Below are positions 6,450 to 39,629 of a stretch of DNA of 64,000 nucleotides, piece by piece. A model generated the notes under the pieces. That model had not been told where the DNA came from, made no database searches, and saw nothing but the letters and a program-made list of their open reading frames with translations. The stretch is taken from IMG/VR virus record IMGVR_UViG_3300045988_171772, positions 96,001-160,000 of that record; one strand, written 5' to 3'. The number at the start of each line of letters is the position of its first letter. Position 1 is the stretch's first letter. Source of the stretch: a virus. Position numbers and translations under genes: made by a program.

Positions 6450-6998
6450 ATGGAATTAAAATGCGTAAAAATGAATCCAGAAGCACAGGATTTATATCGG
6501 TCTACTTCTGGATCTGCTGGATATGATGTCTCTATCTGTGATAATAGAGAACTTGATATGATTCGCAAATGGGCCAGAGAGAATCCCAAGCAATTGATCA
6601 AGTATCCTAAGATGACTACCATTGGTGGAGCTGTTGGTGGTCAATATTATCCCACCTATCAATTCTCTATTGAACCTGGAAAAAGTGCTACCATTCATAC
6701 TGGATTGGCAGTAGAGATACCCGAAGGATATGTAGGTCTGCTGGTAGCTCGCTCTGGTATCTCCAATCACTATGGGATTACTCCCAAGGATTGTATTGGA
6801 ATCATTGATTCTGATTATAGAGGAGAATTGATGGTCCATCTGGTCAATGACTCGGATCAGGAGTATTTCCTCTCTAAGAATGAGAGAGTATGTCAATTGG
6901 TAATCACTCCGTATATTGCTCCGGATATTGTCTATGTTGACAAACTCTCGGAGACGGAACGAGGAACGGGAGGATTTGGATCTTCTGGATCCAATTAA
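6450..6998 (+). CDS. dut: dUTP diphosphatase (trimeric dUTPase)
   Basis: All five trimeric dUTPase motifs are present: GSAGYD, ARSG, GIIDSDYRGE, RVCQLV and RGTGGFGSSG. There is an extra segment of about 35 aa after motif I. Confidence 0.9.
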   Translation: MELKCVKMNPEAQDLYRSTSGSAGYDVSICDNRELDMIRKWARENPKQLIKYPKMTTIGGAVGGQYYPTYQFSIEPGKSATIHTGLAVEIPEGYVGLLVARSGISNHYGITPKDCIGIIDSDYRGELMVHLVNDSDQEYFLSKNERVCQLVITPYIAPDIVYVDKLSETERGTGGFGSSGSN

Positions 6999-7005
6999 AG
7001 AATCT

Positions 7006-8169
7006 ATGGATGCATATTTCAACTATCACAAAGTAAAATTTGAAGTTTTGCATAGACTCATGAATCCCATAGCGAGAAGACACCAAATTCACAATGTCAA
7101 TGTCTTTATTAACCTGGATGATCTTCTTCATCGGTTACACAGGCCTGTGATCAATGATGAATTGACCATCTCGACATCAAATACCATTGTGAGACTGGTA
7201 TCTTCCATCATCAATATGGCAGCTCACTATAGAGAGTATATGATGAGAGAAGGATGGACTCCCAAGGTCTATCTATGTTACTCTTCTTCTTTTCACGGTC
7301 CTTTTCGGAATATGGTTTATATCGAAAATTATCGAGATCATTTCAAGACCATCAGCAGTGAATTGAATCAGGAGTATGCATATCTCAATCGAGTCATTCC
7401 TCCAGCTCTTAATCTTGTGAAATCCATCTGTCAGTATATTGACGGAGTCTATCTGGTAGATTCTACCTATGTGGAACCTTCTGTATTACCTCTAATTCTC
7501 TCTGAGATAAAACATGCCGATTATAATTTCCTTGTGACAAGAGATGAATATGACTATCAATATACCTCTTATCAGAATTGGGCTATCATCTATGCAAACT
7601 CGGATGAGGAGAAATCTGAATTGATTACCTCTTCCAATCTATGGAAGTTTGTCGCAGAAAAGAATAAGGTCAATACAGAGGATCTTAGTCTTGATTATCA
7701 GGCTTCTCTCTATTCCTTCGTCTTATCTGTGATAGGAAATCGATACAGAGGAATTCCTCGAATCAAGAAGTGCGGTTGGTCTCGGATTCTCTCTATTGTG
7801 GATGAGATATCCAAAGAGCCTACTTCCATCACTGCATCTACTCTAAGAGAGAAAGTCATTGATCGTCTAAAGGGTAAGACGTATCTCACCTTAGATCAGA
7901 TCAGTGCCAATCTCGCCTGTACGGATATCCAGACTCAATATCGTCGTCTCAATATGCAGACGAATTCTGTGTTGAGTATGGACCTTACGACACAAATGGT
8001 AGATGTCCCAGATTATGAAAATCTTCTCACTGTGGATCGCATCTACTTCAAAGACTATCATCTCAATATTCCCTTCTTAACCAAGCAGATGCCTGATTCT
8101 CCCATGGTGAATCGGAAATTTCGATTGGATAAGAAAGGTCCTAAGAAGAAGGAGGGAGATCCTGTATGA
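7006..8169 (+). CDS. hypothetical protein (weak PIN/FEN-like motif spacing only)
   Basis: Track ORF 6916..8169 trimmed to the ATG at 7006, just after the dut stop. VFINLDD, ENYRDHFK and LVTRDEYDYQ loosely recall 5'-3' exonuclease motifs, but the acidic residues are not conserved. Confidence 0.6.
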   Translation: MDAYFNYHKVKFEVLHRLMNPIARRHQIHNVNVFINLDDLLHRLHRPVINDELTISTSNTIVRLVSSIINMAAHYREYMMREGWTPKVYLCYSSSFHGPFRNMVYIENYRDHFKTISSELNQEYAYLNRVIPPALNLVKSICQYIDGVYLVDSTYVEPSVLPLILSEIKHADYNFLVTRDEYDYQYTSYQNWAIIYANSDEEKSELITSSNLWKFVAEKNKVNTEDLSLDYQASLYSFVLSVIGNRYRGIPRIKKCGWSRILSIVDEISKEPTSITASTLREKVIDRLKGKTYLTLDQISANLACTDIQTQYRRLNMQTNSVLSMDLTTQMVDVPDYENLLTVDRIYFKDYHLNIPFLTKQMPDSPMVNRKFRLDKKGPKKKEGDPV

Positions 8170-8812: not shown

Positions 8813-9493
8813 TTAGTTTTCTTCAATGCTAAAATAGCTCTGATAGATTTTTGAATGCATGACTCTCTTCTCTAAGAATCTGGATTCAAATCCCTCTTGC
8901 CATCGTATTGTAATCTCCACTCTAGGTTTGATTGAGTAGTATTTACGAGTTACTCCATCACTGATAATATTGTCATTGGTAATGAGAATACCCTGAATCA
9001 TATCTGAGTATGTCTTACCAATATTATCCCAGTCTGGATCTGATATAGGGCGAATATATCCTTTCTCAGCCAAGAGAGTATCTACTTTAGAGAATTTTGG
9101 TGTAGGAAGATAGGCATCTACATAGAATTCCGTCCTTGTATAGATGATCTTCTCTGCGAAGATATGCTTCTCAAGCATCTTCTTATTATGAGCAGCATTC
9201 TTGACATAGAAGGTTCCTGTCTTACTGCTATACCTGGGTCTAGGTGTAGACTTTGGTACCAGATAGAGAATGAACCTCATTTCATGCCAAGGAATGTTCT
9301 CAATCATTTCGATCTTCTTCTGCATATCTTCATAGTCTTTGGGTCTCAGTTGAGACTCTAAAAGACGAAGAATTTCTTCTTTGTCAGATGGAATGTGACC
9401 ATACTTTTTGTCATATTCCATCTCTTCTTTCATCATAGGCATAGTTTTATCATGGAAGCTTTCTAATGTTATTGATGATATTTCCCAATCCAT
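8813..9493 (-). CDS. RusA-like Holliday-junction resolvase
   Basis: PKSTPRPRYS and DPDWDNIGKTYSDMIQGILITNDNII match the RusA pattern (P..R.R; D.DN..K...D...(D/N)D). The start is uncertain: 9493 overlaps the upstream gene, and ATG 9442 is an alternative. Confidence 0.65.
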   Translation of the reverse strand: MDWEISSITLESFHDKTMPMMKEEMEYDKKYGHIPSDKEEILRLLESQLRPKDYEDMQKKIEMIENIPWHEMRFILYLVPKSTPRPRYSSKTGTFYVKNAAHNKKMLEKHIFAEKIIYTRTEFYVDAYLPTPKFSKVDTLLAEKGYIRPISDPDWDNIGKTYSDMIQGILITNDNIISDGVTRKYYSIKPRVEITIRWQEGFESRFLEKRVMHSKIYQSYFSIEEN

Positions 9494-10993: not shown

Positions 10994-13900
10994 TTAATAG
11001 GAAGCGATCTTAGCATAAGTAGACCGGAGATTTCCTCTACCGAGACTATCACTATTCAGACCATTATTCAGAGTGGACAGCTTTTGTTTAGCAGAATCTT
11101 TTGCACTCTGCTTTCTCTGGGTGTCACTCTTCTTACCTTCCTTAGAGGCATTCGTATTCTTACCGGTTTCCATCTTCTTGGTAGTACCACCAAGAGCACC
11201 ACCAGAGACCATGTTACCAGTATTGTCACGAATGTCAGTGAGCAGCAGAATCATCTGATCCAGCTTATCACCACTATCAGAAATAGTAGTTTCAGCATCC
11301 TCAGGTCCGCGACCCAGAAGCGGATAATCCTTATAGGCTCCACCCTTAGGCAGCTTCTCCTGAGCTTTCTTTCTTGCAACCTGCTGCTGATAGTAGGCCA
11401 ATTTCTTTTCTTCCATCGTATTGCCAGGCATAGAAGCAAGAATCTTGGGATCAGGTTCTTTATCCATACCCATACCATATCCGACAGAAGTATCGGTGGC
11501 AGTACCATTTGCAGCAGCATTCTCCTCTGCAGCTTCTTCATCAGCCTTGACCTGGTCATAACTCTTACCAGAGATGACAGAATTCATGACACGAGTGCCA
11601 ACCTTATTGAAGATATTACCCACAGAGTTGAAGATTGCATTGAAGAGGTTGGTAGCAGAAGGAGATTCGGATTCACCTTCAGCACCAGTAGTTCCAGTTG
11701 TGGCTCCTGCCGTAGCAGTACCATCTGTAGCACCCGTAGTAGCGCCGGAAGCTCCAGAAGCAGATACCGACATGCCACTAGAGACATTGGGATCCAACTG
11801 TCCAGAAGCACCCTTGCCATCCGGAGTTTCTATAACCTGAGCCCAGTGCATCGGGTTAATAGAACTCGCTGTGGGAGCCCAAGCAGTCTGTGCCGTAGAT
11901 CCTTGTCCATAGGGAGGATTCGGAGCATACGGGTCATTGATAATGATATTGCCATTGGCATCCAGTCCAGTAGCAAGCACGCAGTGAGAACCACCCATTC
12001 CGTACTTGTACATGTTGCTATTATTGCCAACACCGTACATCATAACCATCTTTCTCTGCTTCAGAGCAGAAATAATGGTATCGAGATACTGCGTACCGTC
12101 AACAGTACCAGCGGACTGAGAGCCATTCGCAGGATAACGAGTTACCTTAACGCCAGCCTTCTGCAGGTTGGAGATGGTAGCAGCGTTACCATATTGATTC
12201 AGGAATGTACCAGGGTCAATGGCATTACCAGTAATGGTAGAAGCAGCCATTGTACCAGAGGTATGAACGCATCCAATAGAACCAATAGTTCCTTTATAAG
12301 GAGGCAGGTTCATATTGGAGTACGAGTTACCATTCTGTGAGAAGTAGTAAGCTCCATGCTGAATGGTGGTACCATTATCCTTCACCACATTGGCAGGAGT
12401 CGTACCAGAAGCAGATACTGTGGAGCCTTCGCTTGCCATAGTACCCATTGCATGAGCACCACCCAGTCTCTCCATAGAGTAAGCATGAGTAGCTCCATTC
12501 TGAAGCATACCAGGTGATACCACAGAGGATCCTTCACCATCATCCACGGTATACATACCATCAGGTGTACGACCTGTGACAGTAACGATGTGACCCGCTT
12601 TGGTATAAAGAGAATCACAAGAATTACATCCAGATCCATAACCCATGGATTTACCAGAGACAATGACAGGATTTCCATTATCCAGAGATGCATCCAAAGA
12701 ATCCATCCCGGAGATTTCAGTTCCGGACATACCATATTTACGAGCACCTTCTGTGAAGAGCTTCGCATTGGCACCTCCATCTGTCAACATACCATTTCTT
12801 CTGGCATATCTGCCCACTTCACCAGGATTGGCATTACCGCCAGCTGCATTCACAGCATTCGCCAGTGCAGTAGGTCCACAACCAGAATTGGCCATATTGG
12901 CAGGAGATCCATCCGGAAGAGTACCGAGACTCAAAGAAGCATAAGAAGGATCATCTTGCTTCAGACCACCAGGTCCATAGCCAAGAGCTCCTCCACCATT
13001 TCCAAGAGATGCTCTAGAAGACTGCTTGTTAGCTTCTTTTGCAACGCTCAGAGATGCAGTCATATTGTCTTTCTTGTTTTGCTGATATCTCTTGCTAGAA
13101 GTATCTGTTCCTGATCCATATCCTTCAGTATTAGCAGCAGTGGCGGTTTCTTCGTCCTGCTTCTTATTACCTCCAAATATACCAGAGAACCAGTTACTTA
13201 CAGCCTTACCAGCTCTCTTAGCAGCACCGATTACTCCATTAACGGCTTTACTGCCGATAGTCTGATTCACAATATCATTATATTCGGTAAGAGACAAATC
13301 TTCTTCTGTAAGATTATTATCTTTCAAATATTGCTGATATTCTGCCTCATACTCACTCTGCTTTTGGTCAATGGTCTTAACACCTTTCTTTTCAAGACCA
13401 AAGACTTTGTAGATGAGCTCGTAAATGACTTCGGCGAGTTCTCTCTTGAAATTGGGCAAACCAATAAGCTCACAGATACTAGAAACCAGATCGAATGCAG
13501 GACCGACAAAGGGAAGGTACTCGACAAGAAGGCTGATAATAGCAGATACAGTTCTCATTCCAATATCAACATCGTCTTCGGATATCATGAAAAGATTCGC
13601 AGCATCCAAAGCACCAGAAGCTACTGTAAAGACGCCTGTAATAACTGCACCAGCAGTCTTCAGAGCCTGCCCAGCAGTGCTTGCATTGAATTTTGTGATC
13701 AATTCACTGATCTGTGTAGCAAACTTTGTATTCTTTATTGCGGTCTTCAGATTATTGAAGATTCCAGAAATGAAATCCTTAATCTTCTTAACCAATTCAG
13801 AAGGTTTTACATCTTTCAGAAGTTGTTTAAGAGGACCACAATTTGCAAATTTATCAAGAGCTTCCGTCAGCATATCCAGGAGATTTGTCAGAGACTCCCA

Positions 13901-16900
13901 GACCTTGCTTCCGTTGGTACTTGCCCACTTTGCTGTAGTGAAATCTGCCGCCTTCTTTGTTTTTGTAGCCAAGAATCCTGCGCCTTTTTGAGCCAGGCCA
14001 GTCAGGCCTCTTCCTACAGTGGCAGTACCCTTACCAACAGCTGCAGTTGCTTTACCGAATTTTTTGATAGATTTGACAATCGGAATATGATCGGTTACAA
14101 AATCGACACCTTTTCCTACCCAGGAAAGCGCTTTACCGGCTTTACTACCCTTGACAGCAGCTTTCGCAGCTCCATAAGCGTTCGATGCCTTAACACCGAC
14201 ATCGTGAACGACATCAGCAGCTGTCAAAACTGCCCCACCGGCTTTATTCACAAGAGTACCACCGGCTTTGAAACCAGCTCTTGCTAGATCTCCATCTGTA
14301 CCAGTAACTGCAGTTTGAGCTGCCTTCCTTCTGACAAAATTCGGAATCATCATGCCTCTTTCAGTATTGACGGTAGCAGTAACGACTTCGTTACCATTTT
14401 CGTCAACTCTGGTACCTGCACCGACATAGTCAGGATTCAACTCTTCCATTTCTTCCTTGGTGAATTCTTTAGTGTCTCCACCAAGGACGAATTGACCGAG
14501 GAAATCACCAACCTTATCTCCGATACCTTCAATACCATCCATGATGGCACCACCGATACCTTTTGCAAGAGCACCACCGAGAGAGATAACCGCTTTACCA
14601 AGTACCTCTCCCAAAGTACCGATCAGTTTTCTACCAGTCTCAGAGTTCAGAAGAGCAGCCACAGTGGTAATACCACCAATAGCAAGACCAGCTTTCTTGA
14701 GGATATCCCCAATTCCGCCTTCTTCCTCTTCTTCCTGAGCAACCGCGTCACCTTCAACAGGTTCTGCCTTACCAGGTTCTTCATCTTCTTCACCGGTAGA
14801 ATCCTTCACTTTATCTTTACCCTGAGCCTGAATAGAAGCAGTTTCTTCTGCTTCTCTCGCTCTTCTCTGAGCATCCGCAGCATCTGCTTTGTCCTCATTA
14901 GCCGCAGCAGTCTTTCTTCTATGCTCAGTTTCGGCGATCTCAGCTTTATTTTCTTCTTCTTGCTGCTTAGCTTCTTCAGCCTGATCCTGCATCTTTTGCT
15001 TTTTCTTCTCAATAGCAGCATTGACAGCATTGATGATAGCAGAAGCTTTATCAGAAGCAGTATCAATCAGAGATTCATCCAGAGGAATACCAAGAGTAGC
15101 AGAGATTTGACCCAAAGCAAGAGCAATCTGATTCTTACGAGTCGCTTGTGCTTCTGCTTTTTCTTTCTCTTCTTCTACCTTCTCTGCAGCAATACGGTCA
15201 CGTTCTTGGAGCTCTTTCTTGAAGGCCTCCTGGTTCTTCATCCACTTATCAAAATCTTCTTTATTCTCGATTCTGTTATAAGTTTCATCGATGATGTTAC
15301 CTTCGGCATCCCGTTCAAGATACTGCTCAACGTCTTTCCGTCTCTTTGCATACTCTTTATCAGTCAGATCCTTAGCAGCGTAAGCATCCTTCCGATTATA
15401 TTTACTGAGCACACTATCGAGACGATTTTGTCTCTTACTATTCTGCTTTTCTGCACGATATTTGGCAAATCCAGTCAGGCCAGCAAGAGCTTGCTCTTTA
15501 TTATTAATGAATTTCTGGTAATTCTTTCCGATATACTCATTGAGAGCATTGGGGTCGATCTGACCATTCTCATCTCTCGGAAGAGCATTCCAGGCTTTAT
15601 CCTTGACATTACCGTTTCGATCCTTAGGAAGCAATTCTTCCATAGCAGCTTGTCTTTCCATAGGATCGACACTCTGCATTCTAGACTGAATATCATCCAA
15701 TCTATCTTTCTCATCTTGATACTGAGCTCCATAATAGGATTCAGCACCCTGAGCCATAGAAGATTTAAATGCTCCGATTCTAGCACGAATTCCACCCTTC
15801 TGAGTGACAGCGGATTTCGCACTATCCTTCAGATTTCCTAAGAGACCATGTCTAACATAACCAGCTCTAGCTCCCCAACGAGCATTCCTTCTCGCTCGTC
15901 TCTGACCTCTGAGGTTCTTTAAGAACTCAAGAGGATTCTCTGCATTTCTACTATTCCAGAGATCAGCGATGAGTTGAGTCGGTTTCGCTGCAATCCATGT
16001 AGCAGCTTTAGCAGCAGTCTTCAGTGCGAACGCTCCACCTTTGACAGTGGCACCCAACATAGCACCGGTAATCTTGACAATCCCATTATTGAGAGCCTGC
16101 ATAGGATGGGTAATAATGGAAATCACATTCTTACCAACATTCTGGATGGTTTCAACCATGGACTTTGTCACAGGATTTTTCAGTCCCATGTCTCTGAAGG
16201 CGGCTACAATAGGAGCAAACTGAGCTTTCGCATAGCTTGCAACTTCATTCTTGACAGAGTCAAAAGAAGACTTCAGAAGATTCTTTCCTTCTGTCTGAAG
16301 CATGTTTGTCCACTGACCGACCATACCAGTCTTCTCAACATGGACAACTCCATTTTCATCTACTGTCTTTGATCCAAAGAAGAGTCTCTTGAAATCAAAT
16401 CCAGTAGTAGCGATACCCACAGTAGCACCAAGAATGGCACCACCAATAGGACCACCGGGAAGGAAGAGAGAACCTAAGACTCCACCAATACCTGCGCTCA
16501 TAGCAGTTCTCTTGGTAAAACCTACCTTAGCTTTGATCTTCTGCCACAGATTTGCTGCGATTTCCTTACCATCTGTAAAGACATCTTCCACCGCTTCCGC
16601 AGATTTATTCAGCTCATCAATAGCGATATTGATCGAGGCCTTGGTATCTTTCTCTCTATTCTTATCCTCGGATCTTCTTCTAGAAGCTTCGTTGGTATTG
16701 GATCCAGGTCTTCTTGCATTCTGGTTATTGGCTCTACGAGCAGGAGCACCACCGAGTCTCTCACCATTACCAAGAGCTCCATTATCATTATTGGTATTAT
16801 CAGAAGGAGCATTCGGATCCTTACCAGTCATTACCTGAGTGGATTTATCTCTCACCTTCTGCTTGAAGGTACGAGTATCCTTAGGCTTCTTCTTGATTTC

Positions 16901-19318
16901 ACCTTGACTATTCAGAATAGACTGATCATTCTGCCACTGGGTATTTCCATCTCTGGGGATTCCTTGTTTATCCATGGGATAAATATCAGATCCACCAGGA
17001 GGTTGCAGATTGGCATCTCGATCGGTACCTTTAACGACTCTATCATCATGATCAATCGGCTTGATGATATATTTCTTACCATCCAGGACGATATTTCTTC
17101 TCTTTACGACACGAAGGCATCCAGGTTTACCATATCGATACTTCAATACAGCCAAACCGAATAATCCATCTTTGTCACCAGATTTATCAGCGGTGATAAA
17201 ATCGTATTGATCCGGATTGTAGGCATTATTCCGCATGATGTTCATCACATCAGCGACAGTCAGATGATCATATTCATACTTACTGACATTCTTCTTGAAG
17301 GAGCTTGCAACTCCCAAGACACCACCAGTAGTATCAACTGTATCATATCCTGAAATAAGACCGATCAATCCCAGACCAGCAGCTTCCACTTTAGAAGCAG
17401 CTTTGTTTCTCGTGTAAGTGGTACCGACACCTTCACTAGCAGCATATTTGATATTTTCGATATATCGATTCTTCTGCTTATTAGAGGCAAAGACAGTACC
17501 CTTTGCACGATCCATCAGCCTCTTGGTTTCTTCTGCAGCTTCCTCAGCTTTCTTCTTGTCTCTCTCCTGTTTTCTAGAGAGATCAGTAGCAGTATAAGAA
17601 GTACCAAGATCTTCCGGGCTAAATCCACCTTTGATAAAACCAAACTGGTTGGTTTCTCTCCGGTTAAATAGCTCGGATTCAGATTCTGTGAGTTCCATCT
17701 GCATCATATACTGACGCAGTTTTGTCACAGTTCCTTTGAAATAAATGACCAACTGAGAAATCTCAAATGGATTAAATCCCAGTTTCTCGAGTTCTTTACC
17801 ATAGGCTCTAGCAGCTTGGGTAAGATTCTTCTCTCCTTCGAGAGTTTTCTCACCATAGATCATAGGTTGCAAATGCTTCCACATGATCTTCTTTGCTTCA
17901 TCCTGTAAAGCCTCGTCATCCTGGAATTTACTTTCAAAGAAAATATTCGATTCAGCAGAAGCTCCACGGAATGCATCTGATGTGCGAGCTCTCAATCCTT
18001 CTCGAATCTGTTTCTTGTCCTTGAATGTCCCGGCGTCATAATCATAGAAGACGGGTTCCTTAGATCCTTTCCTCTTGGGAATATTCGAAGTATTCGCTTC
18101 GATCATTGCCAAGTAATGAGGAATGACTACCTCAAGAGCTCTCTTGGATTTACCATCCCAAGGAACTGCTCCCTTATAGTATTTCCCTAACTGGAAAGAA
18201 TCTTGCTTTCTTGCTCCAGCTCCTAACAGCTGACCAAGCATTCCTTTGATTCCGGATTCATTCCGCATGTCAGAAAGAGTCGATAATCCGCCCATCAAAG
18301 CCTGAGGAAGCAGATCATCGACTTTTGTGATAGCCTTCTGAATCTTCTTCGGAATCAATTTCTTCATTGCAGCATTCATGAGCATCTGAGTAGGCCGAAT
18401 CATAGATTTCGGTCCACCCATACCGCCCATCATATTTCCCATCATGGAACCCATACCCAGCATCATCTGCAGTTCAGACAGAGACGAGCTATTCTGGAAA
18501 TTCTCTTTGACGACGGAAATGTAGGAGGGAAGATCGAAAGAACCACCTGCCAGGAATGCATCCATAGCAGGAGTCTTACCCTTCTTCTTGGAGGGCTTAT
18601 ACATCTCCATCTGGACTTTCATGAAGGCATGAGCTGACTTCAAATAATCCAGATGTGCCTGGTTTACCTTACTCTGGTTATCATTCATGAATTTCACGAT
18701 ATTAACCAGGTTGGTATTGATCTGATCCAGGCGTTTATTTGTCTCTGTCAGAGAAGCACCCAGTTTATTGACTGCAATCATTCCGATGTTATTCGTCGTA
18801 TTCATGATTGCTTTGGCAGTATTTACCTGGGCCATCATCTGAGCCTTAGAGGATCTCTCTAATGTCTCAGCGATTCGATTGCTTCCTTCCAGGCTAACTT
18901 TTGCAGTTGCTTTCGCATCTGTGCTAAGATTTAATTTACGAACTTCCACACCACTCTCATTTTGATCTTCTGAGGTGGTGTAGTCACTTGAATCGAAATC
19001 AAAATCGTCACTACCAAAAAGATCACCAAAGTCATCCTTGGGAGTGGCGAAGTTACCGGTTTTGATATCATTGATCGTACCTTCAATGATATCATTGGCC
19101 TGCTTTTGAAGTTCTGTATAGTTGAGAGCACGATCGACTTGCTTACCTTTGGCACGATAGTCGCTCATGAAATCTCTCAGCTTATAGATTTCATCCGCAG
19201 CATCTTCTGTAATCTTGGTAGTATTGGGTGCTACCTCGGTCAGTACGTCCTTGGCAGAGTAACCAATCGACTTACCAAAATTAGCAAGCCAAGATGCCAC
19301 GCTATTTAAACGAGCCAA
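10994..19318 (-). CDS. giant virion or ejection / tape-measure-like protein with two C-terminal papain-like cysteine peptidase domains
   Basis: 2774-aa ORF with a TTG start. Contains a Gly/Met-rich stretch (GMGSMMGNMMGGMGGP), Gly-rich hydrophobic segments and a long Lys/Glu coiled-coil. First peptidase: SGCGPTALANA...GHIVTV (Cys codon 12878-12880). Second peptidase: GSIGCVHTSG...GSHCVLATG..NDP (Cys codon 12269-12271). Confidence 0.85.
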   Translation of the reverse strand: MARLNSVASWLANFGKSIGYSAKDVLTEVAPNTTKITEDAADEIYKLRDFMSDYRAKGKQVDRALNYTELQKQANDIIEGTINDIKTGNFATPKDDFGDLFGSDDFDFDSSDYTTSEDQNESGVEVRKLNLSTDAKATAKVSLEGSNRIAETLERSSKAQMMAQVNTAKAIMNTTNNIGMIAVNKLGASLTETNKRLDQINTNLVNIVKFMNDNQSKVNQAHLDYLKSAHAFMKVQMEMYKPSKKKGKTPAMDAFLAGGSFDLPSYISVVKENFQNSSSLSELQMMLGMGSMMGNMMGGMGGPKSMIRPTQMLMNAAMKKLIPKKIQKAITKVDDLLPQALMGGLSTLSDMRNESGIKGMLGQLLGAGARKQDSFQLGKYYKGAVPWDGKSKRALEVVIPHYLAMIEANTSNIPKRKGSKEPVFYDYDAGTFKDKKQIREGLRARTSDAFRGASAESNIFFESKFQDDEALQDEAKKIMWKHLQPMIYGEKTLEGEKNLTQAARAYGKELEKLGFNPFEISQLVIYFKGTVTKLRQYMMQMELTESESELFNRRETNQFGFIKGGFSPEDLGTSYTATDLSRKQERDKKKAEEAAEETKRLMDRAKGTVFASNKQKNRYIENIKYAASEGVGTTYTRNKAASKVEAAGLGLIGLISGYDTVDTTGGVLGVASSFKKNVSKYEYDHLTVADVMNIMRNNAYNPDQYDFITADKSGDKDGLFGLAVLKYRYGKPGCLRVVKRRNIVLDGKKYIIKPIDHDDRVVKGTDRDANLQPPGGSDIYPMDKQGIPRDGNTQWQNDQSILNSQGEIKKKPKDTRTFKQKVRDKSTQVMTGKDPNAPSDNTNNDNGALGNGERLGGAPARRANNQNARRPGSNTNEASRRRSEDKNREKDTKASINIAIDELNKSAEAVEDVFTDGKEIAANLWQKIKAKVGFTKRTAMSAGIGGVLGSLFLPGGPIGGAILGATVGIATTGFDFKRLFFGSKTVDENGVVHVEKTGMVGQWTNMLQTEGKNLLKSSFDSVKNEVASYAKAQFAPIVAAFRDMGLKNPVTKSMVETIQNVGKNVISIITHPMQALNNGIVKITGAMLGATVKGGAFALKTAAKAATWIAAKPTQLIADLWNSRNAENPLEFLKNLRGQRRARRNARWGARAGYVRHGLLGNLKDSAKSAVTQKGGIRARIGAFKSSMAQGAESYYGAQYQDEKDRLDDIQSRMQSVDPMERQAAMEELLPKDRNGNVKDKAWNALPRDENGQIDPNALNEYIGKNYQKFINNKEQALAGLTGFAKYRAEKQNSKRQNRLDSVLSKYNRKDAYAAKDLTDKEYAKRRKDVEQYLERDAEGNIIDETYNRIENKEDFDKWMKNQEAFKKELQERDRIAAEKVEEEKEKAEAQATRKNQIALALGQISATLGIPLDESLIDTASDKASAIINAVNAAIEKKKQKMQDQAEEAKQQEEENKAEIAETEHRRKTAAANEDKADAADAQRRAREAEETASIQAQGKDKVKDSTGEEDEEPGKAEPVEGDAVAQEEEEEGGIGDILKKAGLAIGGITTVAALLNSETGRKLIGTLGEVLGKAVISLGGALAKGIGGAIMDGIEGIGDKVGDFLGQFVLGGDTKEFTKEEMEELNPDYVGAGTRVDENGNEVVTATVNTERGMMIPNFVRRKAAQTAVTGTDGDLARAGFKAGGTLVNKAGGAVLTAADVVHDVGVKASNAYGAAKAAVKGSKAGKALSWVGKGVDFVTDHIPIVKSIKKFGKATAAVGKGTATVGRGLTGLAQKGAGFLATKTKKAADFTTAKWASTNGSKVWESLTNLLDMLTEALDKFANCGPLKQLLKDVKPSELVKKIKDFISGIFNNLKTAIKNTKFATQISELITKFNASTAGQALKTAGAVITGVFTVASGALDAANLFMISEDDVDIGMRTVSAIISLLVEYLPFVGPAFDLVSSICELIGLPNFKRELAEVIYELIYKVFGLEKKGVKTIDQKQSEYEAEYQQYLKDNNLTEEDLSLTEYNDIVNQTIGSKAVNGVIGAAKRAGKAVSNWFSGIFGGNKKQDEETATAANTEGYGSGTDTSSKRYQQNKKDNMTASLSVAKEANKQSSRASLGNGGGALGYGPGGLKQDDPSYASLSLGTLPDGSPANMANSGCGPTALANAVNAAGGNANPGEVGRYARRNGMLTDGGANAKLFTEGARKYGMSGTEISGMDSLDASLDNGNPVIVSGKSMGYGSGCNSCDSLYTKAGHIVTVTGRTPDGMYTVDDGEGSSVVSPGMLQNGATHAYSMERLGGAHAMGTMASEGSTVSASGTTPANVVKDNGTTIQHGAYYFSQNGNSYSNMNLPPYKGTIGSIGCVHTSGTMAASTITGNAIDPGTFLNQYGNAATISNLQKAGVKVTRYPANGSQSAGTVDGTQYLDTIISALKQRKMVMMYGVGNNSNMYKYGMGGSHCVLATGLDANGNIIINDPYAPNPPYGQGSTAQTAWAPTASSINPMHWAQVIETPDGKGASGQLDPNVSSGMSVSASGASGATTGATDGTATAGATTGTTGAEGESESPSATNLFNAIFNSVGNIFNKVGTRVMNSVISGKSYDQVKADEEAAEENAAANGTATDTSVGYGMGMDKEPDPKILASMPGNTMEEKKLAYYQQQVARKKAQEKLPKGGAYKDYPLLGRGPEDAETTISDSGDKLDQMILLLTDIRDNTGNMVSGGALGGTTKKMETGKNTNASKEGKKSDTQRKQSAKDSAKQKLSTLNNGLNSDSLGRGNLRSTYAKIASY

Positions 19319-25071: not shown

Positions 25072-25105
25072 TTAGCCTATACACACTAGATATGAGGTGA
25101 CGCAA

Positions 25106-28100
25106 ATGCTTTTTACTGCAGTTGCCAAGAATCGAGTGTATAAGAATCAAGGGATCATTCCTTTTCCCAAAGGTGCTCCTGTAGGTAGAGGAAATCTCTT
25201 ATTTTTGTGCGCTCCAGATGAAAATTCCTCATTCTCTTTGATCAAAAATCCCACTATGGGTTTGAGTGATGCCCGCTATATTCGATATACCGCCGATACA
25301 CGGTATGTCGGTAAAGTAGGAAATCGCAATATCAAAGAAAATCGTCTGAAGGTATTGAAAGATACTTTCACAGAGGAATTTTCTAATTCTGAAATGAATC
25401 TCATTCTCCCCGCTAAGCTGGAGACTGTGATCAAAACCAATTACAATCTCATCTATGACTTTAGTCATTGGAATCGAATCTTCTTCACCTATCGGAGAAC
25501 TGGTAAGGTAGAATTCCTTTGTCAGAAATACATCGAATTTCTGATGAAGGCTTTCAATCGTTCTGAGTTCTCCTCTTATAAGAAGACACTTGTCCTTCCT
25601 ATCAAGGATTGGATGAGTGCTTCTTCTACCCATGAGATTGGTATCACGAAAGCGTATATGGATACCCCGATTTCTATTCTATGTGCCTGTGCCTATCGTT
25701 TTTCTAATCTCATCAAGATGGTGGAGAATGTCGAAATCTATCTGGTAGATCCTACCAATGGAGAATTTCTTCTCTTAGATTCCTCTTTCTTCAATAAGAA
25801 GATGTATCCGAAACTGAAGAATCTCCTGGGTAGAATGACTGCTGTGAAATTCTCTAAAGCCGAAGAGGAAGTATCTGACTCCGAAGGTAATATCAAGGAT
25901 ACCGATATTGCCAAATTGGATAATCAGGTCAAGAATGAGGTTAAGGAGATTCGCCATAAAGAGAAGGTCAAAGAGATTACCAATGTAATCACCGTTGACC
26001 CCTCGAATGAGAATCCCAAACCCGTTCAGTCTTCTTCTCCTGCACCTGCTCCTGTATCTGCAGAGAAGCCTACCTTTGTCAAACCCGAAAAGAAGACGAA
26101 GAAGGAATCTGCAGAGGATGATCTCATTGACTTCTTACTCAGTGAGGATGAAAAGGTAGATCAGACAGTAGCAGACTCTGCAGAAGATACAGAGCCTGAG
26201 ACCAATCCCACGGATGAAGATTCTGAAGAGGATAATATCGATAATGATATTGAATCTGAGGTTGACTCAGTCGTCTATGATTCTGATGAGGATGCTTCCG
26301 AAGAAGATATCATTGATACAGCTGAAAAGAGAGTGAAAGAGAAGGTACTGATCACCAAATTCAAACCTGACTTTGATGAAAAGACCACGGCTCGTATTCG
26401 CTCTCTTATGGATACACAGGATTCTATCATGAATCAGACTGTGCAAGAAATGAAGAAGAAAATCGTTCCTCCTGCAAATCTTGCACCGTATATCAATACG
26501 ATGAATCCTACCATCCAGAAGCCTAAGGCTAAGAATTTCTATAAGCAATACAATGAAACCACTTTTGAGACGGATATCGATAAAGCGGTTGCTAGTCTTG
26601 CTAAGGCAGATTATCCTCTCTTTATCCAAAAGAAAGAAGTAGAAGATACGTCCGATCTCATGAATATGAAGAAGACGTACACTTACACCATGGCGGATAA
26701 AGATGGGCATACCCATATCATTGCCTTTGATGTACCTATCTTCTTGGAGGATCGATATATCTTCCTTGGTGGTAATAAGAAGGTCATTGAGAATCAGATG
26801 CTGATTCTTCCTATTCTCAAATCTGGTCCTGATGAAGTGCAGCTCGTTACTTGGTATAATAAGATTATCATGAAGCGTAGCAGCATGAAGATCGATCAGA
26901 AATCTGAGATCATCAAGAAGTATATTCTGAATCCTCAGAATACTTCTAGATTCAAGGTAAGAATCGGTAGCTGCCAGATGAAAAATAAAGGTACCGATAC
27001 TTCTCTGGACTATGATAACCTGGCTAAGAATATTACCGAATGCACCATCTATGGGAATCGGTTTATCTTCGATACTGCCTATCTTCTGGAGGAGTATAAC
27101 AAGGTACTATCTAAAAATGGTAAGAAACCTATTTCTTCTACCTATGATGCGAATGATGGACTCCTGGTTGGATATAATACCCAGTCTGGCGATCCTATCT
27201 ATGCAAAAGAGGAGAATGGAAAGGGCGTCAATGATATCATTTATAATCTCTTCAAACCCCAGGATATTGCAATTCTTAAAAAGTATACCGTGACTCCTAG
27301 AAGTCTGATGTATGCTCGAGGGAAGATGTACAACCACATGATTCCTATGGTTGGATTCATGTGCTTCTGTGTTGGTTTGACAGAGGTTATGAATAGAGCC
27401 AATATCAAGTATCAGGTTATTGAACCCAATACTAGGTATGATGTCTTGAATCAGAGTGTCATCAAATTCAAAGACAAATGGCTCCTTTGGGATCATTATC
27501 CCTTACATGCATCTTTGATCATGAATGGTCTGTATCAGTATGACTTCAGTAACTATACCCTTGCGGAAGCAGATGGTAAGGAACTGTGGAATGATATCAT
27601 GGCCAATACCTACAAATCTACTCAGGCACTTTTCGTATTGGAGCAATTCAAAGACTTCTTCATTGATCCTATCAGTGCAGAAGTATTGCGGGATATGAAT
27701 ATGCCTACTGATATCGTAGGTCTGATCATTGCTGCTTGTATTCTTCTGAATAACTCTTCTTCGGAGGATATTACAGATCCGAAGAACTTCCGTATTAGAT
27801 CCAATGAGATCTTTGTCCAGTTTATCTATACGGCAGTCGTCAGAGGATATCTGGAATATCGGAAGTCTATCTATAAGAAGAGACCTGTGAAGGTTACTGT
27901 CGATAGAAGCGTGGTATCGAAATCGATCTATGGATCTACAGACAAGACTGGGCATAAACTTCCTTCTTGTGCCATGATCGAAGATTCTTCTATTCTGAAT
28001 CCTGTATTGGAGATGGAAAAGAAAGGATCAGTCTCCTTCAAGGGTCCTTCTGGTATCGGATTGGAGCAGGCTCTTACATTGCCTAAGAGATCTTTCAATC

Positions 28101-29293
28101 CTGGTATGACTGGTACCATTGCGATCTCTACTTCTCCTGATAGAAATGTCGGTGTTTCTAGACAGCTTACACTGGATCCGAACATCGTCTCTGTCAGAGG
28201 ATACATTGGAGATCATGATGAGGATGCGATCCGGGATATGAAGGGAGCCAATCTCTTCTCTCCTGCTGAATTGCTTTCTCCTCCTGGTGCTATGCATGAT
28301 GATAGTCAGCGTACGGCTATGGCCTATAAGCAGACAAAGTACATGGTCTTGACGGAGGGATCTTCTCCTGTCTTGATGGGTAATAAGGTAGAAGCTGCAT
28401 TGCCCTACTACCTGTCTAGAGACTACACAGTCGTAGCACAAGAAGATGGTAAAGTGGCTGCCATTGAGAATGATCAGGTCATCATTCAGTACAAGAATGG
28501 TCGATATGATTCCTTCTCTCTGGTACCGAAACAGCAAAAGAACTCTGCGGGTGGTTTCTACATCGAAGCGTCTTTCCAGACAGATCTCAAAGTTGGAGAT
28601 AAAGTCAAGAAAGGTGAAGTCGTTGCCTATAACCCCAGAGCCTTTACCAAGAATAAAGATGATCTGAGTGCTTCTATGAATATCGGTGTCCTTTGTAAGA
28701 TGGCAATCTGTCCTACATTTGACGAATATGAAGACTCTGCTCCTATCACGACTGAGCTGTCTAAGAGACTTGCTACTGTCATGGTACATGAGCAGAGAGT
28801 AGTATTGTCTAAGGACGCCGTAGTCTATATGATGTCTAAGATTGGTCAGCATGTCGAAGTTGGTGATTCTCTCATTGAGTATGATAACTCCAATGAAGAT
28901 CCCACTATGGCAGAATTGTGGGCCAATATGGCAGAGACATATGGAGAAGCTCTTACAGATGTCGCCATTACCAAATTCAAGTCTGAATTCTCTGGTGAGA
29001 TTACCAATATCAAGATCTACTCTGCTGTGGATGGAGAAGAACTCTCTGACAAGTCTCTGAGAAAGATCGTCCAAGATTATTGGAATACCATCAAGAAGAG
29101 AAATAAGACTCTGGAAAAATACCGGAATCCCGATGATCCTAAGTTCATGCCTTGTGGACAGCAGATCACAGAAATTCCTGGTAAGGTAGAAGCAAAGTTT
29201 GGGAAAATCCTCGGCGAAAATGTCGGGGATGGTGTCCTCTTCTGCTTCTATATCAAACACAAAGATATCGTCAAGAAAGGCGATAAAGTCACT
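25106..29293 (+). CDS. multisubunit RNA polymerase beta-like subunit, exon 1
   Basis: GAGGTG RBS before the ATG at 25106. KGPSGIGLEQALTLPKRSFNPGMTGTIAISTSPDRNVGV parallels the beta motif LGPGGL...R..H....G.ICP.ETPEG.N.GL. HDDSQRTAMAYKQTKY parallels (E)HDDANRALMG.NMQRQA. The exon ends ...KKGDKVT at a codon boundary. Confidence 0.85.
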
Positions 29294-29633
29294 GAGAGAA
29301 AATGGCCGTTTAATTGGTGACTCTAAACCCATTTAACTGCTGGAATATCTCGCTAGGTCTTTACTACTCTAAGGAGTGATAATGTAAAGAATAGAGACAA
29401 TCAGCATCCAAGATCTTTCTTATATAAGAAGGATAAGGTTCATCGACTATCGAAAGCATAGTCTATAGAGAAATCTATAGACGAAGAAGCGAGTAGAGTA
29501 CCGAGTATCTTCCTACACATTGATTCTCTCCAAGAAGATACTTCTGGGAAAAGGTGGGCAATTCTATATCTGGTAACTAGGATATAGAATTGAAGATATA
29601 GTCAGGCCTCATAGAGATATGAGTGGAGAAAAG
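29294..29633 (+). ncRNA. group I self-splicing intron (340 nt, no internal ORF)
   Basis: P1: exon AGTCACT pairs with GGTGACT (29316-29322), with a terminal U-G wobble. P10: exon 2 AATTA pairs with TAATT (29311-29315). J8/7-P7 block AAGATATAGTC at 29593-29603. P9 hairpin with GAGA loop. Last nucleotide is G at 29633. Confidence 0.8.
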
Positions 29634-29846
29634 AATTATACGGCCTTGAAGGGTATCGTATCCAATGTCATTGATCCTGGATATGAACCTAGATCTGAAT
29701 ATAGACCCGATGAAGAGATCTCTATTCTGATGGCACCCGGAGCTGTTCTTGCTCGTAAGACTCCTTCGGTCATTCTCTCAATGTTTACCAATAAGGTGAT
29801 CATTGAATTGAAGAGACATCTAAAAGAAGACTATCTCGGGGAATAA
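29634..29846 (+). CDS. RNA polymerase beta-like subunit, exon 2
   Basis: NYTALKGIVSNVIDPGYEP...ISILMAPGAVLARKTPS continues the beta motif GDK..(R)(H)G.KGV.S....EDMP....DI.LNP.GVPSRM. Joining to exon 1 keeps the frame (1399 + 70 aa). TAA stop, then a hairpin. Confidence 0.8.
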   Translation, partial: NYTALKGIVSNVIDPGYEPRSEYRPDEEISILMAPGAVLARKTPSVILSMFTNKVIIELKRHLKEDYLGE

Positions 29847-30002
29847 ATAAAAAGATAATAAGGAATGTATGCACAGACGCATACATTCCTTATTATATTA
29901 ATAACCGACAATCATCCCACCGATGTATAATGTACCATTACCAGCATTATATGTTACATTCACATCATATTTATAGGTACCAGATTGTCTCTTTAAAGTA
30001 TT

Positions 30003-30024
30003 CTATAACTATAAATAGTTATAG
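30003..30024. repeat. perfect palindrome CTATAACTAT-AA-ATAGTTATAG
   Basis: 10-bp arms with a 2-nt spacer, in an ORF-poor intergenic stretch. Member of the CTATAG-type palindrome family. Confidence 0.6.
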
Positions 30025-30547
30025 TGCCCTAGTTTATAAAGATAGAATTAGGGAGTAATTCCATAGTAAAGTAATGAGTAAATAGGAAAATGACAAAGTT
30101 TGAAAATCCTATATCTCGTTTTACATTTTGTCTGGTATGTTTTACAGAATGTCACATATATTTGACATTTTAGAAATGGTAAAATGAGTAATTCTAAGAA
30201 GAATCTTGAAGTAATTCGAGTATAAATAGAATACCGAGTAATGATTCTAGATCTATTTCTGTCTAGTTTCATTACTCGGTATTCTATTATCCATGTGATT
30301 ATTAACCTCCAATTTAGAAAATTAAAGATTGGAGAGTGATACCAATAAGATATCTCTCGAAAACACTTTAACTTCCTTAAAGAAGGTGTACCTGGAGGAT
30401 TGAATCTCCAAATGGTGCACCTTCTTTTTATCGATTTGAAAAGTCAGAGATATTTCTCTATATATTATTCCTATGATTATGATGAGTCAAATTAGCCATG
30501 GATTAACCTCGCTTTTGTAATTTAATGAACATTTGGAGGAAATACCT

Positions 30548-30835
30548 ATGACAAATGACATCTGTAGATTTTCAACTAAATATGATATCACCAATATCAT
30601 ATATTCTATAGATCCTGATTATGAGAAGACGCATAATCGGGAGATATACCTTATATGGTATTATGGTCGGGAGATTCTCCCAGGTCATGTAAACTTTGAG
30701 TATACCAAAGGAACGAATCAGCTGTACCTGATTCCAACCTATTATAGAAATCCTGAATTTAGAAAATTGTGTCACCAATTTCCTGGGTTTATGGATCTTT
30801 ATAATGATACTCTTAGAAGATATAACTTAAGTTGA
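30548..30835 (+). CDS. hypothetical small protein (95 aa)
   Basis: ATG at 30548 follows TGGAGGA. The N-terminus ICRFSTKYDITNI is paralogous to the ORF start at 36391 on the minus strand. Confidence 0.5.
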   Translation: MTNDICRFSTKYDITNIIYSIDPDYEKTHNREIYLIWYYGREILPGHVNFEYTKGTNQLYLIPTYYRNPEFRKLCHQFPGFMDLYNDTLRRYNLS

Positions 30836-30980
30836 TGCACAATCTATCTGTCAAGTATTCTTCAAAAATGCCATTAACGTTAAAAAGCGATTGAGCAACT
30901 CATCATAATTAAAGAAGGTGTACCAGATGGATTACTATCCCAATGGTATGCCTTCTTTTTTATTTTATAAACCTAGTGGA

Positions 30981-31002
30981 CTATAGTAATTTATTACTAT
31001 AG
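30981..31002. repeat. perfect palindrome CTATAGTAAT-TT-ATTACTATAG
   Basis: 10-bp arms. It overlaps the 3' end of the CCTAGTGGACTATAG motif (30972-30986). Confidence 0.6.
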
Positions 31003-31105
31003 ATATAGAAGAGGGAGATTACTATAATCACTATGGGGATCGTTATTATAGTAATCCCTCTCTTCTCATTGATTTGTATATTCCTAACTAGATTGTGAGG
31101 GATCT

Positions 31106-31746: not shown

Positions 31747-31822
31747 TGGAGCTAGTGACAGGAATCGAACCTGCAACCTGCTGATTACAAATCAGCTGCA
31801 CTGCCAATTGTGCTACACTAGC
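31747..31822 (-). tRNA. tRNA-Thr (anticodon UGU), CCA encoded
   Basis: Hand-folded cloverleaf. Acceptor GCTAGTG/CACTAGC. Anticodon stem GCTGA/TCAGC with loop TTTGTAA. T-arm GCAGG-TTCGATT-CCTGT. 3' TCCA. Confidence 0.9.
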
Positions 31823-32055: not shown

Positions 32056-32130
32056 GCGGCGGTCGTACAACGGCTAGTATATCAGCCTTCCAAGCTGAGG
32101 ACGAGGGTTCGATTCCCTTTCGCCGCTCCA
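32056..32130 (+). tRNA. tRNA-Gly (anticodon UCC), CCA encoded
   Basis: Acceptor GCGGCGG/TCGCCGC. Anticodon stem TCAGC/GCTGA with loop CTTCCAA. T-loop GGTTCGATTCC. 3' TCCA. Confidence 0.9.
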
Positions 32131-36728: not shown

Positions 36729-37749
36729 TTGTCTACGATAGTAAATATGATTGATGAAGATATAGACTACAGAAAAGTCTACAGAGAGATTGACAATCTC
36801 GGTGATGATGAGGGACAAAATAAAGCCCCAGACATAGACTTTTCATCCCCTGGGTGGACAAACCCAGACAGTGATAAGGTCGAGCAGTTAATTAAGACTG
36901 ATATTAAGACTCTTACTAAGGTAGCTGAATTAAAGAAGAGCTACGATTTCAAGACCAAGAATAAATCCTTCTTGGAATTGTATCGTGATCTTCACTCATT
37001 AGGTATCAAGAATAATAAATTCTTCTTGGTCATCTATGACAGATCTCTGATTGGAGTAGATCCTTTCTCTGAGGCCCTACCTTTATCTACCAAACTGAGA
37101 ATTATCGTAGAATGTATGCGAAATCCTTGGTATTGGTTACGAGAGATTTGTAGAGTTCCTCAGGATGGTTCTGCCATTGAACCAGGAGGAGGTTCTGAAT
37201 TCATGATAGATAGAACCTCAGCTGCTGCTTGGTATTGCTTTATTAACCATATCGACCATTATCTATGTAAACCTCGTCAGACTGGTAAGACCCATTGTGC
37301 CTTATCAGAGATTGACTATGGGTATACCTTTGGATGTAAGTCTTCTACCATTCTCTTTGCTAATAAAGATGCTGAGAATAATAAGATGAATCTCTATCGA
37401 CTGAAATGTCATAGAGATATGCTTCCCTCTTATATGCATATGAAGACGACCATAGACATGGCAGGAAATCTCATTAAGGAGAAGAATAGTGTTACGACAA
37501 TTCGCAATCCTGTGAATAATAATAACATTAAACTTCTTCCGAGAGCCAATAGCAAAGATTCTGCTATGACCTGTGGACGTGGCGCTACATCGTCTTTGAT
37601 GTATTTTGACGAATGGGACTTTATACCCTACCAAGTCGAAATAATGAATAGCGCTGCCTTTGCGTATTCAAGAGCGAGCGAAAATGCTGCTAAGTCAGGA
37701 TCACTATACAGCCGTATATATTCCTCAACTCCTTTAAAGACGGATATTT
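36729..37749 (+). CDS. terL: terminase large subunit, exon 1 (ATPase)
   Basis: TTG start 8 nt after AAAAGGAGGG. Walker A KPRQTGKT. Walker B LMYFDEWDF. Coupling motif YSSTP. The exon ends after ...TDI plus 1 nt. Confidence 0.85.
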
Positions 37750-38163
37750 ACTACGAACTCCCACTAATGAAATTATAGATGGAGAAGAATCTGATAGTAG
37801 TGAATATTCGAAAAGGGCCATATAATAGTGATATTATATGGGATCTTCGTGAACTGCTGGGATATCTCTTATTAGAGACGATCAGCAGCCAAGCTTCTTT
37901 CTATATAGAGAGGAGAAGGTTCAACGACTATCGAAAGCACAGGCATAGGAGTAATCCATATGTCGTAGAGCAAGTAGAGTACAGCCAAGCTATTGGGTAG
38001 GTATATAGGTGATAATAGTCTATAGTAAATCCTTTAAATGGAAGTGCGAAGTATCTCTATAGGACGAATATCGCCATATAGAGATAAAGATATAGTCTGA
38101 TTCCCATAGTAATATGGGCGGGTTTCTTATGTAAACCGGTGAGAGTGTAGCGGACTCTCATGG
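37750..38163 (+). ncRNA. group I self-splicing intron (about 414 nt, no endonuclease ORF), paralogue of the RNAP intron
   Basis: 14-bp P1: exon/intron CGGATATTT|ACTAC pairs with GTAGTGAATATTCG (37797-37810), with the splice-site U-G wobble inside the helix. P2 hairpin at 37818-37841. AAGATATAGTC at 38087-38097. P9 hairpin with GTAA loop plus two more hairpins. Terminal G at 38163, with an alternative at 38175. Confidence 0.75.
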
Positions 38164-39629
38164 ACACAATGGGTGACTTAGATTCTAGAGATGGAGCTGC
38201 TGCTACTGAGTGGCTTTCTCATACTCTCAAGTGGGAAGAAAAATTTTATGATGTCCCTATCGAGAAACTTAGAGCTATGGTTAATGACAACCAATCCAAG
38301 AGGAATGGTGTCATGTGGATCGAGCATTCTTGGAAGCAATTAAAGAAGACACAGGCTTGGTTTGAGAATCAGTGCCGTCTCGTAAACTGGTCTTTGGAAG
38401 TAATCGCGAGGGAGATTGAGCTTAAGAGATTGCATGGCTCTTCTCTGTCTCCCTTCAAGAGAGAAGACATCATGTATATCCAAGCGAATAAAAGAACTCC
38501 GATTGGCGAGATTGATCTTAGTAAAAATATGTGTCCCTTCAAATTCTATAAGAAGATAAAGAAAAGCATTCCTTACTTTATCTGCATTGACCCATCGGAA
38601 GGTCTTGCTCTGGATAACAATGCAATCGAGATTGAATCTCCTTATACCCTTGAAGTGGTATGTGAGATGAAGAATCCCTATATTTCCCAACCAGATCTAT
38701 CTGATATGCTTGTGAAGTTTATGGATCTCTTCTGTCCCAATGCTCTTCTCATTATAGAGAATAACAAGGGTAGAGAATTGATCAACTGTCTCAGAAAGAC
38801 CAAGTATGCAAACCGTATCTGGTATGATACTGGTAAGATGCTGGATGTATCTGAGAAATTGAATAAGTATGGTATGCAGGCTAGAGATTCTCTGGAAAGA
38901 AGAGCATATGGTCTGTCTACCACAAATGCCAGTAGAGCTGTCATGATGGGTATCCTTGAAAGAATGATGGATGAAGAGAAGAGAAAGTTCGTATCAGAGT
39001 ATGTCGTAGATGACATTAGTGCTCTGATTCGTACTCCTTCTGGTAAAATCCAAGCAGCTCAAGGTCAACATGATGACAATATCATGGCCTATCTTTTTGG
39101 TCCCTATATCAAATTCAATTCCAATAATCTGGAAGAATTTGGAATTGATATACATGATATAGACCCAGATGAGGAATCTCTGATGGGGAATATCAGACAA
39201 GTACCAGAAGAGAATAAACCTCTTACTGAAGAAGATCAAATCTTGAAATTGAGAGAAATGTATCCAGATCTTCCTACTGATATCCAAGCTCTCTTGAAAG
39301 ACAATCTCTTCGGTATGAAGGGCGTAAGATTGAAATCCGATCAGGAAGAGAGAAAGAGCTCTGTGCAGCAGATGAAACTGCAACAGACGGCTTCTCAATT
39401 CATCAAGGATGAGACTGTCGATGACTATAAGAGATTGATTGCCTCTAGTACCAGACAGAGATCTCCTTCTGAAGTAGATTATAATTATGACTATGATGGA
39501 GGAGTGCCTTCTGATGATGTCATGATGGATGGAGCTCAGACAGATCGATTCTATGATCATATGTTTGACTCTATCGGTGATTATGAGGCTCAGAATCCGA
39601 ATACCTTTGATCTCAATGACTATATTTAA
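38164..39629 (+). CDS. terL: terminase large subunit, exon 2 (nuclease)
   Basis: ICIDPSEG, IENNKG and HDDNIMAYL fit the RNase H-like terminase nuclease motifs. Joining exon 1 (1021 nt) to this exon (1466 nt) gives 829 in-frame codons. Confidence 0.8.

Follow-up and report, generated by a model that had tools for sequence, protein, structure and literature searches.

The RNA polymerase beta-subunit locus

The window analysed here is a stretch of 64,000 nucleotides (positions 96,001 to 160,000 of the IMG/VR record IMGVR_UViG_3300045988_171772) from an uncultivated human-gut jumbo phage with a genome of about 255–276 kb. Two consecutive open reading frames (ORFs) on its plus strand, of 1407 and 75 codons, flank the region of interest (Table 1). 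The first-pass annotation, made from the letters alone, had read them as the two parts of one gene resembling that of the beta subunit of RNA polymerase (RNAP), split by a group I intron inside the conserved GDK...KG motif. An ENA contig of 255,520 bp (NIEL14-1_SAMEA2042913 scaffold_8) is identical to the window over 29200–29700, and the exact 75-aa ORF occurs in 290 index blocks, on human-gut metagenome contigs of up to 276 kb. The phage is widespread and present in many human-gut metagenomes, on contigs of 200–276 kb. A megablast search of GenBank phages with 28800–30000 gave zero matches, that is, no relative at the nucleotide level there, and scans of IMG/VR for relatives with a peptide pattern and with a junction pattern found none.

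When the two reading frames are joined at 29293/29634 (the slash marks the junction), 4197 nt of exon 1 and 213 nt of exon 2 form one frame of 1399 + 70 codons plus a stop. The in-frame joining proposed in the first-pass annotation is thus sound. Its count of 1399 codons, however, may be too high by three, as public gene calls on identical contigs start at the ATG at 25106, give a first product of 1404 aa and leave 1396 + 70 codons after splicing. The predicted spliced product accordingly has 1469 or 1466 aa.

By comparison with protein families, the host gene encodes the beta subunit of a jumbo-phage RNAP of the multisubunit type. PHROG 3148, "RNA polymerase beta subunit", is matched by the spliced protein with an E-value of 4.9e-144 over residues 274–1467, so that the match spans the junction and continues to the end; bacterial beta chains in the PDB are matched as well. 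When the single sequence is searched against the PDB, the GDK region is aligned only as a non-significant second domain. A profile built from 19 family members aligns the GDK motif with PDB beta chains, with E-values down to 1.4e-16. In this alignment, the junction region lies opposite the bacterial ...GDKMAGRHGNKGVVS...NPLGIPSRM (also given as GDKMAGRHGNKG and GDKMAGRHGNKGVVSRV), which places the predicted insertion inside the GDK....KG active-centre motif, as first proposed. A Pfam search with the 1407-aa and the 75-aa ORFs returned no match for either. Annotated jumbo-phage beta subunits are found by tblastn at 32–35% identity; they belong to the Staphylococcus phages SA1, S6 and the MarsHill-like phages, Yersinia phage phiR1-37, Listeria phage LPJP1 and the Bacillus phages PBS1/Goe21, and most of them span the C-terminal 468 aa without a break. 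The phiR1-37 homologue, g099, is annotated as a "phage structural protein", and for the MarsHill and Madawaska phages the homologues bear the label "viral RNA polymerase beta subunit". Based on these annotations, the enzyme is probably a virion RNAP.

Several other features accompany the gene. The hairpin of 19 bp that folds just 3' of its stop codon is probably a transcription terminator. About 2 kb downstream lie two tRNA genes (RF00005), at 31750–31822 on the minus strand (71.5 bits) and at 32056–32127 on the plus strand (59.7 bits); a tRNA is also found near the homologous beta gene of the metagenome scaffold L006, at 8872–8944. Farther away, the minus strand carries another RNAP subunit gene at 61927–63624 (PHROG 2986, "RNA polymerase beta subunit", E 4.5e-85), consistent with a phage that encodes multisubunit RNAPs across several genes. 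For an ORF of 2774 aa on the minus strand at 10994–19318, no PHROG match was found at E<=1e-5.

Table 1. Features of the beta-subunit locus and of the predicted intron (positions in the window; a slash between ranges separates the two strands of a helix)
Feature	Position	Strand	Remarks
1407-aa ORF	25097-29320	+	ends ...KKGDKVTERKWPFNW, stop; tail ERKWPFNW
Exon 1, RNAP beta-subunit gene	25097..29293	+	start GTG 25097 or ATG 25106
Group I intron, IA-type, ORF-less (predicted)	29294..29633	+	340 nt
P1	29287-29293 / 29316-29322	+	exon AGUCACU with internal guide GGUGACU, 7 bp
P10	29304-09 / 29640-45 and 29311-15 / 29634-38	+	GGCCGT with ACGGCC and TAATT with AATTA; 11/12 nt paired
In-frame TGA within guide sequence	29318..29320	+	ends unspliced translation 8 codons into the intron
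P3	29328-29334 / 29552-29558	+	CCCAUUU with AGGUGGG
P4	29338-43 / 29401-06	+	P4-P6 domain, 29338..29438
P5	29348-51 / 29394-97	+	
P5a	29358-64 / 29384-90	+	
P5b	29365-69 / 29374-78	+	
P6	29408-09 / 29437-38	+	
P6a	29413-21 / 29426-34	+	
P7	29445-29449 / 29599-29603	+	GACUA with UAGUC
P7.1	29461-69 / 29474-82	+	
P7.2	29503-12 / 29534-44	+	U29542 bulged
P8	29559-71 / 29580-92	+	13 bp
J8/7 and 3' strand of P7	29593-29603	+	AAGATATAGTC; as RNA AAGAUAUAGUC
P9	29608-13 / 29618-23	+	GAGA loop
Tail 3' of P9	29624-29633	+	10 nt, terminal G at 29633
75-aa ORF	29619-29846	+	starts MSGEKNYTALKGIVSNV...; first residues MSGEK; own ATG at 29619
Exon 2	29634..29846	+	70 codons and stop; NYTALKGIVSNV...KEDYLGE, stop
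Hairpin 3' of the beta-gene stop	29855..29896		19 bp; probable terminator

Identity and anatomy of the intron

The covariance model of group I introns in Rfam (RF00028), a scan with which the first-pass annotation had suggested, matches the window at 29280–29624 on the plus strand over its full length (model positions 1–253 of 253) with 75.2 bits and an E-value of 2.9e-17. The gathering score of this model is 50 bits. The spacer also folds better than expected from its composition, with a fold z-score of -4.19 and none of 100 shuffled sequences folding equally well.

The anatomy given in Table 1 combines the covariance-model alignment, the MFE helices and explicit lists of pairs. The model's own placement of P1 differs from the pairing between exon and guide used here and contains non-standard pairs; its weakness at this helix is explained by the dependence of P1 on the exon sequence. 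In the pairing adopted, P1 is closed by U29293 and G29316, and the 5' splice site follows U29293. Only five nucleotides, CUAAA (29323–29327), separate P1 from P3, so that P2 is absent. The guide strand of P10 at 29304..29315, GGCCGUUUAAUU, is complementary at 11 of 12 positions to the beginning of exon 2 (29634–29645, AAUUAUACGGCC). Of this interaction, the first-pass annotation had noticed the AATTA/TAATT element, which is present as described, although the pairing extends well past these 5 nt. P1 with its U-G wobble at the splice site, the J8/7–P7 block, the GNRA-capped P9 and the G as the last nucleotide had likewise been read from the letters, and all of them are found where they had been placed.

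P7 holds the guanosine-binding site of group I introns, and in the classification of Michel and Westhof the peripheral hairpins P7.1 and P7.2 are the mark of subgroup IA. Since both hairpins are predicted between the 5' strand of P7 and the 3' strand of P3, the intron is assigned to subgroup IA. It encodes no endonuclease: the largest internal ORFs have 21 aa on the plus strand and 31 aa on the minus strand, in agreement with the earlier statement that there is no intron ORF. The one neighbouring ORF compared with protein families, at 30533–30835, gave no match, and no endonuclease gene was thus found adjoining the intron. Such an intron, lacking an endonuclease, would therefore not be mobile by itself.

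A second group I intron is found in the same window at 37800–38119 on the plus strand (RF00028, 81.3 bits, E 4.3e-19), between the ORFs at 36729–37778 and 38160–39629. As both of these match PHROGs of the terminase large subunit, terL is split by an intron as well. A P2 hairpin is present in the terL intron, whose sequence shares 60% identity with the intron of the RNAP gene. Intron-like matches are also present in the terL gene of phage AR9.

The splice junction and uninterrupted homologues

Among the 39 homologues that cover the insertion site, 35 read straight through it and four stop there. An alignment with RpoB homologues had been proposed along with the first reading; aligned with MAFFT, the predicted spliced protein shows no gap at the junction relative to the proteins of SA1, phiR1-37 and LPJP1. 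The residues around the site are GDKVT/NYTALKGIVSNV in the window, GDKISFYGACKTVIADV in SA1, GDKITFFTSLKTIVANT in phiR1-37 and GDKVTYYTALKTVISDV in LPJP1. The read-through tail of exon 1, ERKWPFNW, has no counterpart in any homologue. An uninterrupted form is seen in a metagenome contig, L023, the single find made with a degenerate junction pattern. Its gene is intron-less and collinear with the window at the DNA level, and it encodes the identical 14 residues KKGDKVT/NYTALKG (KKGDKVTNYTALKG).

At the nucleotide level, the predicted spliced junction is GATAAAGTCACT/AATTATACGGCC, also given as GGCGATAAAGTCACT/AATTATACGGCCTTGAAGGG. Collinearity with L023 alone equally permits splicing at 29292/29633, since the codon at the junction encodes threonine either way. 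This alternative junction would produce the same protein, but it breaks the rule of a U-G pair at the 5' splice site as well as the rule of a terminal G and was rejected. The choice of 29293/29634 follows from these two group I rules, as only they discriminate between the two positions.

The same comparison bears on the possibility that the gene is naturally split, with the 1407-aa and 75-aa ORFs as two separate subunits and an ordinary intergenic spacer between them, in the manner of the divided beta and beta' genes in phiKZ-like phages. Jumbo-phage RNAP genes are often divided into separate genes (PMC7598289), and the 75-aa ORF has its own ATG and is called as a gene by public pipelines. However, this start codon lies within the 3' strand of P9 and is preceded by no clear ribosome-binding site. 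A break within GDK....KG would cut the active-site loop, the tail of the longer ORF is peculiar to this sequence, and the first-pass annotation had itself named homologues with naturally separate subunits as an observation that would speak against an intron, whereas nearly all homologues continue through the site. A natural split is extremely improbable and was rejected on the basis of the full-length RF00028 match in the spacer, the read-through homologues and the uninterrupted L023 gene with the same residues. The preferred reading, an intron within a single beta-subunit gene, is the one followed below.

Variation among strains

Ten distinct variants of the locus from gut metagenomes were compared. 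The beginning of the intron (29294–29345), its end with P7, J8/7 and P9, and both exon ends are invariant. Considered by helices, P1, P10, P3, P4, P5, P6, P7 and P9 do not vary in the ten strains. In the flanking exons, every one of the 18 substitutions hits a third codon position when the spliced frame is read; ten of these fall in the exon 1 flank (29203–29281) and eight in exon 2.

Within the intron, three pairs changed on both sides: 29363/29385 and 29364/29384 in P5a and 29503/29544 in P7.2, the last of which is altered from G-C to A-U in strain L022. When the data were shuffled, three compensatory pairs were reached in 12 of 500 cases and the observed covariation score in 2 of 500. On the explicit structure, 99.1% of the cells are paired, compared with 38–45% when the partners are slid, a contrast that is in part to be expected, since this very sequence had served to derive the structure. 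P8 is paired in 94.6% of the cells; its pair 29565/29586 is a C-A mismatch in six of the ten strains. Three more single broken pairs occur among the strains, in P5b, P6a and P8.

This pattern can be set against the idea of a decayed intron that no longer splices, in which case the beta gene would be a pseudogene or the phage would rely on the truncated protein. The missing homing endonuclease ORF, the missing P2 and the C-A mismatch that several strains carry in P8 fit such decay. Yet the catalytic core, P1 and P10 have been kept unchanged in all ten strains while peripheral helices change in a compensatory manner, and variation confined to third positions in the spliced frame would not be expected of an exon 2 that is not translated. 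The wide distribution of the phage, with the 75-aa ORF in its 290 index blocks and on contigs of up to 276 kb, does not suit a defective gene either. Decay is very improbable, and it was rejected because of the invariant core, the compensatory changes and the restriction of exon 2 variation to third codon positions. The region 29294–29633 is thus, with high confidence, a true group I intron that belongs to the IA type, has no ORF and interrupts the RNAP beta gene; its splicing and autocatalysis we infer from these sequence features.

The DNA downstream of the beta gene (29847–31100) is a variable island when compared with the contigs L013–L022. Its ORFs differ between strains that have an identical exon 2, and some strains carry a Phage_gp49_66 gene within it.

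Introns of relatives at this site or close to it

The GDK codons are also interrupted in other metagenomic relatives. In L006 (ENA ERZ28574337 scaffold_4477), GDKMT is followed immediately by an RF00028 match of 59.4 bits, and YFTALKS opens exon 2. The intron of this scaffold has 284 nt, ends in G and forms a P10 of 7 bp. In L007 (Logan ERR15156800_67527), a match of 33.6 bits follows GDKLA, and the contig stops before the intron reaches its 3' end. Both share with the window the position GDKxx/, phase 0 and the U-G pair at the 5' splice site. In each case P1 is fitted to the sequence's own exon; the helices consist of AGUCACU with GGUGACU in the window, GAUGACU with GGUCAUU in L006 and ACUGGCU with GGUCAGU in L007, with compensatory changes at positions -4 and -6.

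Two further contigs are broken in the same neighbourhood. L009 carries an intron of 320 nt (1690–2009) located 9 nt upstream (GD/KVCQELALK), with a U-G P1 of its own, a terminal G and a P10 of 7 bp that includes one G-U pair. The segment 1670–2030, scanned alone, reaches 31.8 bits with RF00028 and thus stays under the gathering score. In L008, the protein stops after GDKLS(F) from about position 1166, and a possible P1 (CGUUCU with GGAACG) lies about 4 nt downstream; the contig ends 217 nt past the break and has no covariance-model match. Rfam searches of the whole L008 and L009 contigs at E<=1 gave no match.

The identity between the same-site introns is about 55%. Orthology cannot be claimed from this value because it is no closer than that between introns of different genes, as seen with the 60% shared by the two introns of the window; the same-site introns may have arisen by common descent or by independent insertion. 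L006 encodes a free-standing HNH endonuclease 115 nt past exon 2 (6574–7728, plus strand; PHROG 374, E 5.1e-78), which hints at homing in trans in some relatives.

These data raise the possibility that group I introns have landed repeatedly in the codons of the GDK....KG motif, and that ORF-less introns are spread to it by endonucleases encoded elsewhere, in what has been termed "collaborative homing". This idea is speculative and on balance rather doubtful. For it speak the introns that the window, L006 and L007, as three divergent lineages, have at exactly this site, the intron 9 nt upstream in L009 and the possible one in L008, together with guide sequences that fit the local exon in each readable case and the HNH gene downstream in L006. 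If the idea is true, such introns would shield the RNAP gene of their own phage from cleavage during co-infection, a PhiPA3-like competition with the nuclease located outside the intron.

Other sites in the beta gene are broken as well. The 1.6-kb contig L007 has group I fragments at both ends (1–141, 56.4 bits, and 1415–1614, 33.6 bits), and its beta gene is therefore interrupted by at least two introns, which lie about 1.3 kb from each other. In many homologues (P0009, P0010, P0013, P0016, P0017, P0021-P0025 and P0028), the match to the 468-aa query has residue 82 as its precise starting point. Breaks or introns recur at this second site too; the intron of Bacillus phage Goe21 is located just upstream of it, and in the window it is unoccupied.

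Predicted course of splicing

Ordinary group I self-splicing is the best-supported reading of the locus; that it occurs and is autocatalytic are predictions. In the standard group I pathway, the pre-mRNA would fold into a core of P3–P8/P7 and P4–P6, and the guide GGUGACU would pair with the end of exon 1, AGUCACU, to form P1. A free guanosine bound in P7 would then attack after U29293 at the U-G wobble. The P10 guide GGCCGUUUAAUU would hold the first 12 nt of exon 2 while the terminal G29633 enters the guanosine site, and the 3'-OH of exon 1 would attack after G29633, thereby ligating ...GDKVT to NYTALKG.... The outcome would be a restored GDK....KG motif within a beta subunit of 1469 (or 1466) aa. 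Translation of the unspliced RNA would end at the stop 8 codons into the intron and yield a product without the last 70 residues, which is presumably inactive.

Relation to known phage introns

[quoted passage not shown] We take the present intron to share with them the placement of P7.1 and P7.2, the J8/7–P7 block AAGAUAUAGUC and an insertion point where an essential gene encodes a conserved catalytic motif. It presumably departs from them by the lack of a P2 hairpin, by an unusually long P10 (11/12 nt) and by the lack of an endonuclease ORF. At the DNA level, weak matches of the intron to those of Staphylococcus Twort/K-like phages were obtained.

That group I introns occur in jumbo-phage RNAP genes is already known from AR9/PBS1, MarsHill-like phages and PhiPA3, and these genes are frequently disrupted by introns (10.1101/2020.12.14.422802; PMC12350094). 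As in the phage described here, the homologous beta gene of the Bacillus phage Goe21 (vB_BsuM-Goe21) is interrupted by a group I intron (L001 3207–3519, RF00028 76.6 bits), and the introns of AR9/PBS1/BpSp have a core that is 75–79% identical to the present one over about 130 nt. In Goe21/PBS1, however, the break lies about 316 codons upstream, near residue 82, and the GDK site is read through. The PBS1/Goe21 beta proteins are only about 34% identical to the one described here.

PhiPA3 provides a parallel with regard to the kind of insertion site. Its virion RNAP beta gene (gp211/209) is interrupted at a conserved active-site motif by the gp210 intron, a putative group I intron (Birkholz et al. 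2024, PMC11620839). The PhiPA3 intron follows a conserved Asp-Asp pair, and its HNH homing endonuclease nicks the intron-less allele of phiKZ (PMC11620839). In both phages, the insertion thus falls on a strongly conserved motif of the active site in the RNAP beta subunit, but the motif of PhiPA3 is a different one, and its intron encodes the HNH endonuclease, whereas the present intron is ORF-less.

Significance

The kind of element described here is known, and no new mechanism is opened by it. New are this phage, the position of its intron within the GDK motif and the recurrent occupation of the codons around it. For annotation, the consequence is that public calls split an essential polymerase gene into products of 1404 aa and 75 aa, although the correct product would be one beta subunit of about 1466–1469 aa. 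With regard to the biology of these phages, several uncultivated lineages are occupied at the same few codons, an intron hot spot, which fits the rule that mobile introns favour the most conserved parts of essential genes.
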